From the NCBI GenBank assembly GCA_965238275.1, contig OZ250186.1, positions 960,001 to 1,024,000 of the forward strand: DNA of 64,000 nt, given 5' to 3'. Under the pieces are notes generated by a model. It was not told the origin of the DNA. It saw only the letters and a list, made by a program, of their open reading frames with translations, and did no database searches. Source of the DNA: Nitrosopumilus sp. GTDB lineage: Archaea; Thermoproteota; Nitrososphaeria; Nitrososphaerales; Nitrosopumilaceae. The position numbers were made by a program, and so were the translations under genes. The stretch's first letter is position 1. The number at the start of each line of letters is the position of its first letter. Of the stretch, positions 27,637 to 52,012 are shown piece after piece.

Positions 27637-27898
27637 TTTTCCTGGCAGGTCATCTCACACCCCGGAGATCATTCATGATGGTTACTGGTGTATCAGGACA
27701 TGTTATCATTGTAACTGATCGCCGGTGGCACAAATCTGAATCATGCGTACAAGCCGCTCACATAATCGGAACTGTCTGGCACTTCCGATTAACAAGTCCG
27801 TGCAGCCGATTACTTGTACCCTACAGACCGTATGATACTGCATCCGCTACCTGCCAGGATCTGAAATCCCTGATTTGACGCAACAGGCGAATCCGGCA

Positions 27899-27959
27899 GT
27901 AACTGTTTAGGTTCGATGTCTGCAGCATTGTGGAATTAGGCGTAAACCTAACCACTTAC
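27899..27959 (-). mobile_element. 61-bp MITE (GTAA termini, IS66-like), 8-bp TSD ATCCGGCA
   Basis: Reverse complement of 46371-46431; TSD at 27891-27898 and 27960-27967. Confidence 0.9.
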
Positions 27960-46370: not shown

Positions 46371-46431
46371 GTAAGTGGTTAGGTTTACGCCTAATTCCAC
46401 AATGCTGCAGACATCGAACCTAAACAGTTAC
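46371..46431 (+). mobile_element. 61-bp MITE (IS66-like termini), 9-bp TSD CTTTTACCG
   Basis: TIRs GTAAGTGGTTAGGTT / AACCTAAACAGTTAC (13/15); TSD 46362-46370 and 46432-46440. Confidence 0.92.
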
Positions 46432-46562
46432 CTTTTACCGTATGTGCCCAAGTCCATGCTCAGGTTCTGGTCGGAGATAAGCATGAATGCTGACATGACC
46501 GCATATGCCTGTGCCTGCGTTTTTTCCCTGGCGTGTTGTGAGGTGCCGTATCCCCTGATGTC

Positions 46563-48656
46563 TCAGCGCCTGGGTCTCATGTCTTTATAATTGGGAGCCG
46601 GAGCGGCATTCTGATACTGCCTGATTCTCTCTGCAATAAGCCTGTACAGCGATCTGAACTGATCCTTGGTTTTGTCCGAGAGGAAGCCGGTCTCGCCCAA
46701 TGTGATCTTTTCACAGACGTACCTTGTGATGTCTTCATTGTCAAACACTCCCCAGCCGTCGTCTGCATGCTCCTCCCAGACAGTTCTCAGCTTGTCCAGT
46801 ATCCCCCTTCCATCCTTTGGCATGACATCCTGGGCGGTAATATTTGCAAACCCCTCGTTTCTCAGTTTTATCTCATATGTCTGGTTTACAGGATACATGT
46901 AATCCTCAGGTACGATATAGTCCTCTATCGACTCCAACTTCTTTCCGTTCATCTCAAAGATGATCGTCTGTACCGGCGAAAAGCCGTTGGAATTCAGATG
47001 TGTCGAGATCTGCTTGGATTCGTCCGTGTTGTCCAGCAGGATAAACGTCTTGTATCCGTGGTTTCTGTGAAATATTGCCAGAGGAAGGACTGCGTTCTTG
47101 TTGTATGCGGCTACAACGTTGAGCGGATTCATTGATATGTTTGGATCCTGAAGGAACTTGTCAAATGCGTTGAGATACATCGCATCGGACATCGTCTCCA
47201 CTATGATTACAGGTCTTGAGTTTGTTCCAATCTCCCGGTCCACTATGGATTCAACTTGGCCCCTTGAGAGTCCATAGAGGATAGGCGTCAGCGTCTTGTC
47301 ATCTGCATTCCAATAGTCATAAAAGATTCTGCTGAGGTGCTTTCTCTTGTCCAGCTCCACTACAAGCAGGTTTCCCGGCGTGTAGTCAAATATCATGAAC
47401 GGTGAGTGGGTTGCATACAGAACCTGGTTGGATCCGGCCAGGTTCTTGAGCAGGTTCGAGATTCCCATCTGCTGTGTGGGGTGGAGGTTTCTTGCAGGCT
47501 CGTCTAGCAGCAACAACGCCTCCTTCAGCTCCGCCCTCTGGGTTTCGGCTGCAAAGTTCACAATAAATGAAAACGTCCACTTGAAGCCCTCGGCCCTCCT
47601 GTTGAGCAGTCCTGTGTTTGTAATTGTTCCATCCCTGTGTACATCTGAAATTACCACACTCATGATGTTTCCCGGATTGTATCTTAGATCCACATGGATC
47701 GGTTCTCCCTTCCATGCAGGATTCAACTTTCTAGTCAGTCTGTTGCTTGCCGTGTTGAGAAGCTTTATGCATTTTGACGGGTTGTTCTTTACTGCCTCAA
47801 GCTCATCTATGTTGAGCTCTGCAAGATAAAAGAGGTTTCTTACAGTTTCAGCCCTGTCAAACTCCTCTATAACCTCGATGGAATTGGTTCTCTGATTGTT
47901 CTCTTCCCTGATAAACTCGTTAAGATTGATGCTGCCGTAGATCTTTTTGTAGTCTGAAAAGTAGACAAATCTTGGATGCATCTCTGATTCGATAAAATTC
48001 TGCATGGCAGTCTTTTCGCTGTTGCCGCTGAGCAGACTGGCAAACTGGTTTTCAGGGCTGTTGCAGATCTCCTCCCACTTCTCAATAACCTTTGGTTCCT
48101 GAACTGCTATCACCTGAAAATGGTTGCTAAACTCTGCCAGCTCCCCTTCAAACGTCTCCTGGTTCTTTGGAATAGACCCGTCAAAGAATTTTGTATCTAT
48201 CTGTATCCTCAGATGGTTTGGAATCGTATCCAGAAACCCGATAACCTGTTTTGTAAAGTTCTCCCACGAGTTAATATTGCCGCTATCCCCGTCGTCCAAC
48301 TCGATCTCATCAAACTTGTATTGAACCTTCGATCTTCTGTTTGTCCTGAACAGTCTGATCTTTTTTATCTCCGGAATTCCCGGAAACTTCTCCCTGATTA
48401 TGGCCGTTTCACGCAGATTCAGCTCAAACTCACCTTCGACTAGCTTGACCTCGTCTTTGAGCTCTTCACTCATTTCATCGCAAAGATCCAGCTCTGATAC
48501 CTGCTCGTCTTTGTTTAGCAATGTCAATGCCTGAAGGATGGTCGTCTTGCCACTCTCGTTTCTGCCAACAAAGGCTGCCAAATCCTCAACTGTTATCTCC
48601 CCAGAGTCATGAATGCAACGATATGCCCTGACTCTGAATTTTCTGAGTCGCATCAA
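46563..48656 (-). CDS. ABC-type ATPase with C-terminal TOPRIM-like domain (OLD-family-like)
   Basis: GRNESGKT, LLLLDEP, YATHSP, IIVETMSD...LLD. Confidence 0.8.
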   Translation of the reverse strand: MMRLRKFRVRAYRCIHDSGEITVEDLAAFVGRNESGKTTILQALTLLNKDEQVSELDLCDEMSEELKDEVKLVEGEFELNLRETAIIREKFPGIPEIKKIRLFRTNRRSKVQYKFDEIELDDGDSGNINSWENFTKQVIGFLDTIPNHLRIQIDTKFFDGSIPKNQETFEGELAEFSNHFQVIAVQEPKVIEKWEEICNSPENQFASLLSGNSEKTAMQNFIESEMHPRFVYFSDYKKIYGSINLNEFIREENNQRTNSIEVIEEFDRAETVRNLFYLAELNIDELEAVKNNPSKCIKLLNTASNRLTRKLNPAWKGEPIHVDLRYNPGNIMSVVISDVHRDGTITNTGLLNRRAEGFKWTFSFIVNFAAETQRAELKEALLLLDEPARNLHPTQQMGISNLLKNLAGSNQVLYATHSPFMIFDYTPGNLLVVELDKRKHLSRIFYDYWNADDKTLTPILYGLSRGQVESIVDREIGTNSRPVIIVETMSDAMYLNAFDKFLQDPNISMNPLNVVAAYNKNAVLPLAIFHRNHGYKTFILLDNTDESKQISTHLNSNGFSPVQTIIFEMNGKKLESIEDYIVPEDYMYPVNQTYEIKLRNEGFANITAQDVMPKDGRGILDKLRTVWEEHADDGWGVFDNEDITRYVCEKITLGETGFLSDKTKDQFRSLYRLIAERIRQYQNAAPAPNYKDMRPRR

Positions 48657-48854
48657 GCCATATTTAGTTGGCTTCGATTTAACTTATTCGACGTTTGATT
48701 TGGGAATTATATGGATTGGCAGACCCCACATATTGACAACGCTGTTCCACGCCGGCGAATGTTTGGTTGTCCCGTAGTGCAACCACGTGTTTGGGCAGCT
48801 GCATGCTTGTGCAACCCCGCCTAGATTTGGCTGGGACGAGTATGTACGCCTGAC

Positions 48855-48914
48855 TAAGTGGTTAGGTTTACGCCTAATTCCACAATGCTGCAGACATCGA
48901 ACCTAAACAGTTAC
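48855..48914 (+). mobile_element. 61-bp MITE, third copy (first G missing), degenerate 8-bp TSD CGCCTGAC/CGCCCGAC
   Basis: Identical to 46372-46431. Confidence 0.88.
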
Positions 48915-48927
48915 CGCCCGACTCCGC

Positions 48928-50446
48928 TATAGTGAAAAGCGAAAGTCCGTGCAATTTTGAGATCCTTTTTAAGAAAATAAATCCCAACTACAGGTATGAT
49001 TGTCAGCAGAATCATCAAGATAACACAATCTCGGGAACTGTCGCGCAAGATCGTGAAATGCTCCCGGGAAACAGACATCATTTACGACATGACGATCATG
49101 ATGAAACTTGCACACCCGGGAACCACACAGTTTGATGTCAACAACCTGATAACAGGATGGCGCAGGGAATTCGGCCTGACCAACAGCGTCCGCATGCATG
49201 AGGCCGCCTCAAAACAGGCTTTCCAGGCGGCAGTCAAATTCCGCAAGGCAAACCGGCTCAAGCACAACAAGCGCATCTGGCGCAAGAAACAGATCAAGCT
49301 GGGGGAAAAGAAGACGTACAGGCACAACAGGTGGACCGAGCCGTCTGGCCTGATGAGGCGCGGCAGGAAAACAACCAGGCTGCGCTCGCTGAATTCACGC
49401 GGAAAGCCAAAACTGCGGGACGATGGCACCGTATTTCTGCCCGGACTCGGGGAAGTAAGGCCGCGCGTAAAGATCCCGGAAGGCAGGTTCGTGTCATTCC
49501 AGATGATTGATGTTACGAAAAAAGTCACGCGCAGGACGAAAGATTCTGACTGCGAATTCAGGCCGTGCCTGCAAATCGAGGTTCCGGATCCCGAACCCGT
49601 GACAGACGGCGACGGCGACAGCTGCAAGGCCGGATTGGATCTTGGAGTCAGGCACCTTGCGGCAGTCGCAGACGAGCATGGGAATGAAAAATTGTACAAT
49701 GTCCCGGGAGGCTGCAAGAGGCATGACGGCGACAGGATTGATCAGCTGAAATCACTTAGATCAAGATGCCAGACAGGCTCCAGAAGATGGAAAGAGATCG
49801 GCCGCAAGATAGCGCATGAATTGAAAAATATATCAAACAGGCAAAAACACAACGAGATCGACATTGCCAGGCGGATAACAAAAGGGCTGTCTACATTGTT
49901 CTTGGAAGACATGGATTTGACCAAGATGAGGCGATCCAACGGAAATTCCTCAAAGACGGGGCTGAACCGCGAGATGGCATACTCCAGGATGGGGGAGTTT
50001 CGATGTCAGCTTGAATGGCAGATGAAAAAGAAAGGCGGCGTTGCAAAACGCGTGAAATACAGGTACACGAGCCAGAAATGCGCTGCCTGCCAAATAGTGG
50101 ACAGGAAGTCCAGAAACGGCGAATCCTTTGTCTGCGTGTCCTGCGGGTGGTACCACCATGCCGACAAGAACGCGGCAAAAAACATCTTGGATAATGACTG
50201 TCTCCATACGGAGGAGACTGGCGGCCAAGCCCACGGGAATCGTGGAGGCACCATTGCAGGTGTCGAGGTCGTCACAAGGCGCGAGGATCACGGATCGGAT
50301 GGTTCTGGAATGAACGATTCGACAAGCCGGCTTGGACCCGGCAACAAGGATGATGATGATGTTGGAAGATCTGACAGAGCGCCGGAAAGAGCATCAGGAC
50401 ATGCTACAGAGAGATCTGTTTGCACGAACTTTCGCTCGCCGCTATA
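48928..50446 (+). mobile_element. TIR-bounded non-autonomous element carrying tnpB
   Basis: Left TATAGTGAAAAGCGAAAGTCCGTGCAA (48928-48954) vs reverse complement of right TATAGCGGCGAGCGAAAGTTCGTGCAA (50420-50446), 22/27 identical. Confidence 0.75.
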
Positions 50447-50447
50447 A
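48996..50447 (+). CDS. tnpB: RNA-guided endonuclease TnpB
   Basis: RuvC-I GLDLG, RuvC-II FLEDM, YTSQKCAAC...CVSC zinc finger, RuvC-III HADKNAAKNI. Confidence 0.92.
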   Translation: MIVSRIIKITQSRELSRKIVKCSRETDIIYDMTIMMKLAHPGTTQFDVNNLITGWRREFGLTNSVRMHEAASKQAFQAAVKFRKANRLKHNKRIWRKKQIKLGEKKTYRHNRWTEPSGLMRRGRKTTRLRSLNSRGKPKLRDDGTVFLPGLGEVRPRVKIPEGRFVSFQMIDVTKKVTRRTKDSDCEFRPCLQIEVPDPEPVTDGDGDSCKAGLDLGVRHLAAVADEHGNEKLYNVPGGCKRHDGDRIDQLKSLRSRCQTGSRRWKEIGRKIAHELKNISNRQKHNEIDIARRITKGLSTLFLEDMDLTKMRRSNGNSSKTGLNREMAYSRMGEFRCQLEWQMKKKGGVAKRVKYRYTSQKCAACQIVDRKSRNGESFVCVSCGWYHHADKNAAKNILDNDCLHTEETGGQAHGNRGGTIAGVEVVTRREDHGSDGSGMNDSTSRLGPGNKDDDDVGRSDRAPERASGHATERSVCTNFRSPL

Positions 50448-50472
50448 ATAGATATAAGGGAATTGGAGATCC

Positions 50473-50552
50473 TAGTTAGTTGTATAACTCCAATCTCGTG
50501 CGTAAATTATCACCAATAAAACACGATCTAGACACGATTATGCAACAAACTA
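50473..50552. mobile_element. 80-bp MITE, 15-bp TIRs, 8-bp TSD GGAGATCC
   Basis: TAGTTAGTTGTATAA...TTATGCAACAAACTA (13/15); TSD 50465-50472 and 50553-50560. Confidence 0.75.
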
Positions 50553-50569
50553 GGAGATCCTAAAACAAA

Positions 50570-51058: not shown

Positions 51059-52012
51059 ATGGACGTAACAGGTGATTCGCAAACCATAGAAGAGATCCGG
51101 GCAGAGATTGATAAACTAAAAAGGAAGGCGATGATTCTGGATTCGTCGTCCACAAGCACTATCAAGGGATCCTATTCAAAGAAACCGGCATCAAAGACTG
51201 CAGCCAAGAAGCCTGCAGCCAAGAAAACCGCATCAAAGACTGCAGCCAAGAAAACCGCATCAAAGACTGCAGCCAAGAAGCCGGCAGCCAAGAAAACCGC
51301 ATCAAAGACTGCAGCCAAGAAGCCGGCAGCCAAGAAAACCGCATCAAAGACTGCAGCCAAGAAAACCGCATCAAAGACTGCAGCCAAGAAGCCGGCAGCC
51401 AAGAAAACCGCATCAAAGACTGCAGCCAAGAAGCCGGCAGCCAAGAAAACCGCATCAAAGACTGCAGCCAAGAAGCCGGCAGCCAAGAAAACCGCATCAA
51501 AGACTGCAGCCAAGAAAACCGCATCAAAGACTGCAGCCAAGAAGCCGGCAGCCAAGAAAACCAAACCCAAAGAATCTGAAAAAACGCCCGAAGAGGAGAT
51601 GGAGGCAAGCCTCTCTAATGAGGAGATTGAAAATTTTCGGATTGAAAAGGTCGACATGGACAAACTCACAAACAAGGTATGCGTCATTCTGGCAGAACGC
51701 GAATCAAACGGAATGCTTCAAAACGAACTGTGGAAGAAACTCAAACTCTCAAACCGTGACGGCTCCCGTCTGTCATTGAAGCTTGAGAGAATGGGAACCA
51801 TTACCAGAGAGAAACTTCTTCAGAAGAACCGCTGGACTTACAAACTAATCCTAAAAAAGACCCCAATCAGTACCAAATCTATCGAGAATGCCCCCTGCCT
51901 GGTGTGTCCTGTTGAACAAAGATGTACCATAGACGGTGAAATCAGCCCTAGAAGCTGTCAGCTTATTGAGGACTGGGTAATCAATTCGATGAAGAAGCCG
52001 AAGTCCCGATGA
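51059..52012 (+). CDS. TFE-beta/RPC34-like protein (wHTH plus Fe-S motif) with histone H1-like repeat N-terminus
   Basis: GMLQNELWKKL wHTH; PCLVCP....C...GEISPRSC.LIEDW motif. Confidence 0.8.
   Translation: MDVTGDSQTIEEIRAEIDKLKRKAMILDSSSTSTIKGSYSKKPASKTAAKKPAAKKTASKTAAKKTASKTAAKKPAAKKTASKTAAKKPAAKKTASKTAAKKTASKTAAKKPAAKKTASKTAAKKPAAKKTASKTAAKKPAAKKTASKTAAKKTASKTAAKKPAAKKTKPKESEKTPEEEMEASLSNEEIENFRIEKVDMDKLTNKVCVILAERESNGMLQNELWKKLKLSNRDGSRLSLKLERMGTITREKLLQKNRWTYKLILKKTPISTKSIENAPCLVCPVEQRCTIDGEISPRSCQLIEDWVINSMKKPKSR
51178..51562. repeat. Coding tandem repeat of 27-bp (KKTASKTAA) and 15-bp (KKPAA) units
   Basis: aagaaaaccgcatcaaagactgcagcc / aagaagccggcagcc mosaic. Confidence 0.95.

Follow-up and report, generated by a model that had tools for sequence, protein, structure and literature searches.

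The DNA analysed here (the window) is a stretch of 64,000 nucleotides from the ammonia-oxidising archaeon Nitrosopumilus sp. (contig OZ250186.1, positions 960,001 to 1,024,000), whose genome is a single contig of 2,216,668 bp that is 99.92% complete. Window positions 48930-50444 are occupied by a 1.5-kb element with 25-nt inverted ends and a duplicated TA on both sides, in which the sole long open reading frame (ORF) is tnpB; a DDE_3 transposase is not encoded, and the element is therefore non-autonomous and not a canonical IS630. It is very probably a non-autonomous transposon of the IS630/Tc1-mariner type that carries tnpB and an omega RNA as cargo, is moved in trans by a resident IS630 family (family D, described below), and would use its nuclease, by analogy, for homing. 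The features of the locus, in window coordinates, are these:

48927, plus strand: flanking target base C, host DNA outside the element, invariant to the left of every copy.
48928-48929, no strand: left copy of the duplicated target TA, identified from empty sites and from relatives with a single TA.
48930-48954, plus strand: left terminal inverted repeat, which together with the TA reads TATAGTGAAAAGCGAAAGTCCGTGCAA.
48966-48982, plus strand: A/T-rich stretch resembling a TATA box, about 26 nt upstream of the ATG, as read from the sequence.
48996-50447, plus strand: tnpB ORF of 483 aa, the stop codon of which (TAA) consists of the right TA duplication and the first flanking base.
50201-50444, plus strand: structured scaffold resembling an omega RNA, which overlaps the 3' end of tnpB and extends into the right inverted repeat.
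50420-50444, minus strand: right terminal inverted repeat, the reverse complement of which together with the TA reads TATAGCGGCGAGCGAAAGTTCGTGCAA.
50445-50446, no strand: right copy of the duplicated target TA, at the first base of which (50445) homology to three relatives (G002, G004 and G017), all with a single TA, resumes.

Archaeal promoters lie at a characteristic distance upstream of the transcription start, and by this rule the A/T-rich stretch at 48966-48982 is likely the promoter of a leaderless tnpB mRNA. With the TA included, the inverted repeat (48928-48954 and 50420-50446) is 27 nt long, complementary at 22 of 27 positions (81%), and the longest in a 2-kb region around the element; the ends read TA-TAG on the left and CTA-TA on the right. 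The possibility that a single palindromic hairpin had been seen twice was rejected by eye, because the core contains self-complementary stretches of only 3-4 bp, and the repeat is therefore a true inversion between two ends.

The region was compared by BLAST with the rest of its own genome, and about 19 full-length matches were found as well as fragments; when copies interrupted by other insertions are included, 22 copies have both ends. Nearly all of them begin to be homologous at window position 48927 (CTATAG...) and cease to be so at 50446 (...GCCGCTATA), tnpB is the sole gene between the ends in all 22, and the flanks are unlike at every locus, so that each copy represents a separate insertion. 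An initial inspection of the window (the sequence-only reading) had bounded the element by imperfect 27-bp inverted repeats with TA-TAG at both ends, and had proposed that other copies with identical boundaries be sought; both of these features were borne out, since the same two ends bound 22 genomic copies and cannot be a chance pairing. Conservation stops at the inverted repeats and not at IS605-type hairpins, the latter being an outcome that would have spoken against the element as proposed. An 8-bp direct repeat (CCGCTATA) that had been offered as an alternative boundary proved to be a local coincidence: only CTATA is common to the other copies, and the remainder of the repeat is particular to the window locus because the bases to the left of the C vary among copies.

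Among 17 full-length copies that were aligned, identity to the window copy ranges from 79% to 97%, with values of 89-90% for most copies, and identity between copies reaches 99%, the closest pairs being at 97-99%. The copies include a first subfamily (the window copy and two others at 97%), a second of seven copies (95-99% identical), a third of four copies (93-96% identical to the group of seven), and three singletons near 80%. The two 97%-identical relatives of the window copy occupy different loci from it, which points to movement in the fairly recent past. In another tnpB copy the left inverted repeat is interrupted, after ...GCGAAAGTTCG, by an insertion sequence of 1.77 kb. This insertion sequence (644168-645940 of the genome) has an ORF of 502 aa and is itself present in about 12 full-length copies and as fragments.

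Empty sites were examined for the length and identity of the target duplication. The site of the window copy reads ...GC-TA-element-TA-AATAGATATAAGGG, and in the three relatives G002, G004 and G017, where only one TA is present, the corresponding site reads ...(G)C-TA-AATAGATATAAGGG or ...G-TA-AATAG.... Because nothing in these three genomes corresponds to the left flank of the window copy (48691-48926), this site fixes the right junction only. For the copy at genome position 316708, an orthologous empty site was found in the congeneric genome G296 at 92-93% identity, where ...AAGATC-CTG-GTGGCCG corresponds to the filled site ...AAGATC-C TA-element-TA-GTAGCCG. Two paralogous empty loci of the copy at 710218 read ...GATGGTA-CTG-GCTGTCGC, and two of the copy at 883618 read ...TTATATT-CAA-CGCACACG. 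Each full empty site (one orthologous, two paralogous) thus contains 3 nt, C and two others, where the filled site has C-TA-element-TA, and insertion therefore adds the element and 2 bp. The count of 2 bp is observed directly; the last two bases are TG or AA in the full empty sites, and the original bases were presumably TA. The sequence-only reading had anticipated an empty allele with a single TA, and these sites are favourable to it, as is the single TA at the right junction of the window site in three relatives; an empty site that retains one inverted repeat, which would have counted against it, was not seen. In the DNA-like sequencing runs X1 and X2 there is no contig that joins both flanks across the element, a result that is uninformative and was not counted against the model. 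No contig of the RNA run X18 lies on the stretch, and no conclusion was drawn from it. No tRNA was found near the insertion site with ARAGORN.

The classical TnpA recombinases were sought in the whole genome. The Y1 transposase domain (Y1_Tnp, PF01797) has no match, although the same search was positive in 6 of 14 control genomes, and the Resolvase domain (PF00239) of serine TnpA has none either, although that search was positive in 12 of the 14. The earlier observation that no TnpA adjoins tnpB therefore extends to the entire genome. These results bear on the alternative that the element belongs to IS200/IS605, as a tnpB-only element of the IS1341 type moved as single-stranded DNA by a Y1 TnpA acting in trans, with CTATA as its target and cleavage motif. 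The alternative has some appeal, since every copy has CTATA directly repeated at its two ends, as would be expected of a target and a cleavage site, the protein belongs to the OrfB_IS605 family, and a more distant tnpB family of the same genome, 34% identical, has IS605-like ends. Yet a 5-nt CTATA target retained in the empty site had to be rejected, with 3 nt in the three full empty sites, (G)C-TA or G-TA at the window site in three relatives, and no Y1 TnpA in a genome so nearly complete; moreover, the ends are symmetric inverted repeats of 25-27 nt and not subterminal hairpins, and they match those of IS630 elements with DDE transposases. The IS605 alternative is thus already largely refuted, and the probability that it is correct is very slight.

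The 34%-identical family is present in three copies (1130190-1131572, 1086609-1087880 and 1183691-1184566 of the genome), with asymmetric ends and a GC-rich hairpin near the right end, in a genome without a detected Y1 TnpA. A 45%-identical tnpB of the same genome has the same type of inverted repeat as the window element, and so do the tnpB copies of G017 (55-58% identical at the amino acid level) and G296 (73%). The link between tnpB and IS630-type ends therefore extends to the relatives detected at 45% identity or more, and does not include the resident 34% family.

Candidates for the transposase that moves the element were provided by the DDE_3 domain, which has 35 matches in the genome, 32 of them over the cut-off. 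These copies were sorted by DNA sequence into five IS630 families (A to E), and the ends of each family were read. Only family D, with ends that read TATA(C/G)TGACG(C/A)(G/T)CAAAAGT..., resembles the tnpB element: its ends match those of the element at 17-23 of 27 positions, as compared to 9-17 positions for the other four families. Two transposases of family D are intact (2123842-2124945 and 1873253-1874348 of the genome), each being 337 aa long with a helix-turn-helix (HTH) domain and a DDE_3 domain, and that at 1873253 is an equivalog-level match to the NCBIfam model transpos_IS630 (175.5 bits, cut-off 100). The right inverted repeat of the window copy matches the right end of the IS630 copy at 1873253 at 23 of 27 positions.

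Closer still are the ends of autonomous elements in G296, which contains about 27 transposase copies that are 88-95% identical to the one at 1873253. Twenty further autonomous copies were fetched from that genome, and in 17 of them the beginning of the left end resembles that of the tnpB element; in the best copy (L137) the two are identical over the first 23 nt, and the others have one or two changes. The consensus of the left ends of the tnpB copies agrees with the autonomous left end of G296 at 25 of 27 positions overall, and the right ends agree at 22-23 of 27. A search of 121 genomes in the genus for transposases with 58% or greater identity to family D was positive in three of them (G000, G017 and G296), and the TnpB family, at 55% identity or more, was found in the same three among 301 genomes of the class; as the two samples of genomes are different, this is a co-occurrence and not a formal test. 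The sequence-only reading had called for an autonomous DDE element with the same inverted repeat, and would have been undermined if no other element possessed it; such elements exist both in the same genome and in G296. Its proposal of a non-autonomous IS630-like element mobilised in trans is thereby supported, as far as shared ends, empty sites and multiple copies can indicate.

A further element treats the two kinds of ends alike. A sequence that we take to be a member of the IS110 family, from its IGIDVHK motif, is inserted in the same inverted-repeat core, at the point CAAAAG^GTTCGTGCA, in four of four copies; two of these insertions interrupt left ends of the tnpB element, a third the left end of the 45%-identical tnpB, and the fourth a right end of IS630 family D. 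A sequence-specific recombinase therefore treats the tnpB ends and the family D ends as the same target. This 1.3-kb element (827296-828588, 2148614-2149882, 503013-504375 and 1289005-1289790 of the genome) seems to be an insertion sequence whose targets are the ends of a different family of transposons.

The cargo protein has the features of TnpB. Its 483-aa ORF matches the Pfam families OrfB_IS605 and Cas12f1-like_TNB and passes the NCBIfam model guided_TnpB (109.6 bits, cut-off 100); the NCBIfam model of IS607-type TnpB scores higher (91 bits) than that of IS200-type TnpB (56 bits), both being below their own cut-offs. In alignments to two solved TnpB-family nucleases (9yyg and 9j09; ISDra2 TnpB chains were weaker hits), the residues D215 (GLDLG), E304 (FLEDM) and D390 (HHADKNAAKNI) and two CxxC pairs fall on conserved positions, in agreement with the initial statement that all three acidic residues of the RuvC site and the zinc finger are retained. 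An ORF of 479-493 aa is kept in 13 of the 17 full-length copies examined and is broken in the other four. The ratio of nonsynonymous to synonymous substitution rates (dN/dS) in the TnpB core is 0.17-0.27, and the protein is under purifying selection. There is no stop codon for tnpB inside the element, and the gene therefore ends at the duplicated TA and the first base of the flank: these supply TAA or TAG in 12 of the 22 copies, and in the other 10 the frame reads through into host DNA.

The family to which this protein belongs is narrow. In a word-based protein search its relatives comprised 22 protein clusters of at least 44% identity and one short partial hit, below which there was a gap and then matches of at most 41% identity over at most 60% of the query. 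A scan of metagenome contigs confirmed none of 85 pattern matches as relatives, and a scan of viral contigs none of 14. A scan of genome contigs yielded ten loci, nine of them in two records of metagenome-assembled genomes (MAGs) of Nitrosopumilus sp.; the tenth is a weak match of 25% identity in an unrelated bacterial MAG.

A structured omega RNA overlaps the 3' end of tnpB and reaches the right end of the transposon. The last 330 nt of 16 elements (11 copies of the same genome, one of G296 and four of G017) were aligned, and five helices of their consensus fold show compensatory changes. One long-range helix was dropped from the fold, as were the pairs predicted within the first 100 columns; the remaining 58 pairs are 99.2% paired over the 16 sequences, and 11 of them have changed on both sides. 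The covariation score was reached by none of 500 shuffles, and control structures that were slid by 1-3 columns were only 34-50% paired. The supported scaffold extends from about 50201 to 50433, and its last stem pairs 50385-50397 with 50416-50433, that is, inside the right inverted repeat. A pseudoknot between the terminal unpaired bases and an invariant UGGCGGCC strand was considered and dropped by eye, as the G017 sequences would not keep the pairing. Rfam contains no family for the scaffold, its only match being at the level of chance (E=0.92).

The same region stands out in the pattern of nucleotide conservation among copies. From about 50157 to the end of the element conservation is high (0.85-0.99) and alike at the three codon positions, whereas upstream of that point the third codon positions are the least conserved in most bins. 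Correspondingly, in five comparisons between subfamilies the synonymous divergence (dS) is 0.31-0.96 over codons 1-395 and drops 2- to 13-fold, to 0.07-0.35, over codons 401-480. In a metatranscriptome library (X17), the contigs on the tnpB element within a 2-kb stretch are confined to 50210-50324 (121 nt, depth 81) and 50417-50446, none being located on 48700-50173, and the only other piece lies at 50473-50552, on an adjacent miniature element of 80 bp. Because these are contigs and not reads, they hint only weakly at an abundant RNA with a start near 50210.

The bases that flank the copies were compared with those of the autonomous relatives. To the left of the left TA, the base is C in 22 of 22 copies of the same genome, four of four of G017 and the single copy of G296; empty sites carry this C as well, and it is therefore target DNA and not part of the element. 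To the right of the right TA, the 22 copies have G in nine, C in nine, A in three and T in one. In the autonomous relatives of G296, C precedes 22 of 23 left ends and, read on the opposite strand, 22 of 26 right ends, and the flanks thus amount to a symmetric CTAG target. IS630 has a preference for CTAG targets. The right side of the tnpB copies (9/22) differs from that of the autonomous elements (22/26; Fisher P=0.002), and within the tnpB copies the left side differs from the right (P=2e-5). This asymmetry is a new detail, and suggests that CTA is a target-adjacent motif. The chances are about equal that C-TA is, or is not, required on the left only in the manner that TnpB would impose, with a target-adjacent motif that abuts a right flank matched by the guide.

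A mechanism may be proposed that unites these features. The DDE transposase of family D would recognise the near-identical ends of the tnpB element and act upon them in trans, with insertion at C-TA(-G) sites and duplication of the TA. The right inverted repeat would have a double function, serving the transposase as an end and the omega RNA as its last stem; because of this, transcription through the right end would append flanking DNA to the RNA as a guide, such that the 3' tail of the RNA would correspond to the flank. A complex of TnpB and omega RNA could then, on the model of IS605 TnpB and Fanzor, cut the restored empty site (C-TA and the right flank), a role that the sequence-only reading had likewise envisaged, and recombination with a filled sister copy would reinstate the element, while the filled junction (...CTA-TA-flank) would be out of register and hence spared. 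In a more specific form of this proposal, which is plausible but held with less than even confidence, the element would be an archaeal hitch-hiker consisting of TnpB and omega RNA on a nuclease-free IS630 lineage, in which one 25-nt repeat is both the transposase end and the last stem of the guide RNA, and in which C and the duplicated TA are read as the target-adjacent motif; reading of C-TA by TnpB would then account for the C to the left of all 22 copies and for the relaxation of the right half of the palindromic CTAG.

Several observations weigh against parts of the interpretation given above. With respect to the transposase, the case for mobilisation in trans is one of end similarity and co-occurrence; the two intact resident transposases are located in elements with ends that are only 17-23 of 27 like the tnpB ends, and the autonomous left end of the G296 type is present in the same genome only as a solo remnant at 1082170. 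The four resident copies of family D have C at one of four left flanks and two of three right flanks, so that any preference for C is unclear with so few copies. With respect to the guide, 13 unpaired nucleotides separate the last supported stem from the end of the element. With respect to homing, excision of a cut-and-paste DDE element already leaves a break, and whether such elements gain from TnpB is a matter of debate in a review of 2026 (PMC13565253).

The first of these points may be taken to mean that the element, although of the IS630 type, was moved by an IS630 of the G296 type that has since been lost or by another DDE family, or that the copies are now immobile relics. The exact match of 23 nt at the left end is, after all, to autonomous copies of another genome, most copies differ from the window copy by about a tenth of their bases even if the closest pairs are 97-99% identical, and the tnpB ORF is broken in four of 17 copies. 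On the other hand, the transposase at 1873253 is intact, 94-95% identical to the G296 copies with which this alternative is concerned, and associated with a right end that is 23/27 like that of the tnpB element, and the near-identical relatives of the window copy at other loci indicate movement that is hardly ancient. It is improbable, on balance, that the mover was one other than family D or that the copies can no longer be moved.

The remaining points concern the function of the nuclease, and an element transposed as described here, by family D acting in trans, could instead carry TnpB and its RNA as an RNA-guided regulator, as a factor of defence or exclusion, or as a selfish passenger. Relatives of TnpB that are nuclease-dead and act as regulators are known, and cleavage by the TnpB of the window is a prediction. 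The 2026 review questions whether a homing nuclease is of use to a DDE element that moves by cut and paste (PMC13565253). The triad of D, E and D and the zinc finger are nevertheless intact, selection acts on protein and RNA scaffold alike across subfamilies with up to about 20% divergence, the scaffold abuts the end of the element as it does in TnpBs that capture guides, and the asymmetry of the flanks (C on the left of all 22 copies, G on the right of nine), which is absent from the autonomous relatives, fits a motif that is required on the left only. A function other than homing is thus rather unlikely, if less so than a different mover.

The surroundings of the element were examined for features of the insertion site. 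Its neighbours are an AAA ATPase resembling AriA and OLD and small genes without an assigned function, and no transposase gene adjoins it. The ATPase (697 aa, 46563-48656, minus strand) has its best matches to the AriA model of PADLOC and to OLD/GajA models, and it is conserved in 15 of 18 relatives in the genus that were searched. The spacer downstream of it (48657-50569) is an insertion hot spot: in the window it contains 236 bp of unrelated DNA, the tnpB element and a miniature element, and in G017 it is occupied by a different insert of 2.6 kb with an ORF of 400 aa.

The miniature element, just to the right of the tnpB element, is 80 bp long (50473-50552) with inverted ends of about 15 nt (TAGTTAGTTGTATAA...) and an 8-bp target duplication, GGAGATCC, at 50465-50472 and 50553-50560. 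G017, G002 and G004 lack it at the corresponding position, and two further copies lie at 1288730-1288809 and 1992783-1992864 of the genome; contigs of runs X1 and X17 have loose ends at exactly 50473 and 50552. A conserved unit of about 60 nt (TAAGTGGTTAGGTTTACGCCTAATTCCACAATGCTGCAGACATCGAACCTAAACAGTTA) is present in eight genomic copies with unique flanks, three of them in the window (48855-48924, 46372-46432 and, on the minus strand, 27889-27958) and five elsewhere; one of these copies comes to within 3 nt of the tnpB element. According to ARAGORN this unit is not a tRNA; it may be a small RNA, a regulatory site or a mobile repeat. Farther to the right, positions 51059-52012 encode a protein of 317 aa with a long run of AKKPAAKKTASKTA-like repeats that matches Pfam HC2 (histone H1-like nucleoprotein), followed by a C-terminal domain that is not repetitive.

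Cas12 evolved from TnpB, of which Fanzor is the descendant in eukaryotes; nucleases of this type in the service of cut-and-paste DDE transposons are common in eukaryotes and rare in prokaryotes. For the question of how such nucleases came to serve these transposons, the element described here is a clean natural case: 22 copies contain tnpB alone, no IS605 or IS607 transposase was found in the genome, the IS630 partner has intact transposases, and the prediction of a target-adjacent motif is testable. All of the parts are small enough to be rebuilt in a laboratory host.

The association of TnpB with IS630 is already known for other microbes. The sequence-only reading had started from the premise that prokaryotic TnpB normally travels in IS605 or IS607, neither of which has terminal inverted repeats, and this premise has been out of date since 2023, when Altae-Tran et al. 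(PNAS; PMC10691335), in the portions of that paper relied upon here, tied the TnpB branch DDE-6 to an IS630 transposase and a separate HTH protein, and also described solo TnpBs with ends nearly identical to those of transposase-bearing elements, from which mobilisation in trans was inferred. The 2026 review repeats the link between IS630 and TnpB and discusses the rarity of such associations (PMC13565253, consulted sections). In our literature search, no paper that pairs TnpB with Nitrosopumilus was found.

In comparison with the DDE-6 and other DDE-associated TnpBs, insofar as the portions cited describe them, the protein of the window is likewise located inside the symmetric inverted repeats of an IS630 family, with its 3' end less than 250 bp from the end of the transposon (PMC10691335). 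DDE-6 combines TnpB, the DDE transposase and a separate HTH protein in one element (PMC10691335), whereas here tnpB stands alone between the ends, and the partner IS630 has no tnpB and an HTH fused to its DDE domain; the DDE-6 layout within one pair of ends is thus not that of the window element. IS1341-type elements of IS200/IS605 are similar in that they are present in multiple copies, have tnpB as their only ORF and possess an omega RNA at its 3' end. They differ in their asymmetric ends with subterminal hairpins, their lack of a target duplication and their dependence on Y1 TnpA, in place of which the window element has inverted repeats, a duplicated TA and no Y1 TnpA found in its genome; it therefore lacks the characters of IS200/IS605, as it lacks the serine recombinase TnpA of IS607. 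With IS630 and with the TA-flanked miniature inverted-repeat transposable elements derived from such families, it has in common terminal inverted repeats, TA duplication, ends like those of autonomous IS630, CTAG-like targets and probable movement in trans by a full-length relative; it has no DDE_3 transposase of its own, unlike a canonical IS630. It is unlike the miniature elements of IS630 in that its cargo is 1.45 kb of protein and RNA under purifying selection, and in that C appears to be needed on the left only.

Another parallel is Fanzor1 in eukaryotic Tc1/mariner elements and other DDE transposons, which is likewise a TnpB-family cargo of a TA-duplicating element with terminal inverted repeats, with a guide RNA gene that overlaps the right inverted repeat, and for which the 5' target duplication has been proposed to be part of the target-adjacent motif (PMC13565253, in the sections used). 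Differences from Fanzor1 are the archaeal host and a protein of 483 aa, the size of TnpB, that passes the prokaryotic guided_TnpB model. What distinguishes the case in Nitrosopumilus is the archaeal host, a tnpB that never shares an element with a transposase, and a partner that is an ordinary IS630 with a fused HTH; the link between IS630 and TnpB is thereby extended to ammonia-oxidising archaea, and current understanding is not overturned. If the element is indeed a TnpB hitch-hiker on a nuclease-free IS630 lineage, it would be a compact prokaryotic counterpart of the partnership of Fanzor1 with Tc1/mariner, possibly a relative of its ancestor, and a tractable system in which to learn what an RNA-guided nuclease gives to a cut-and-paste DDE transposon.

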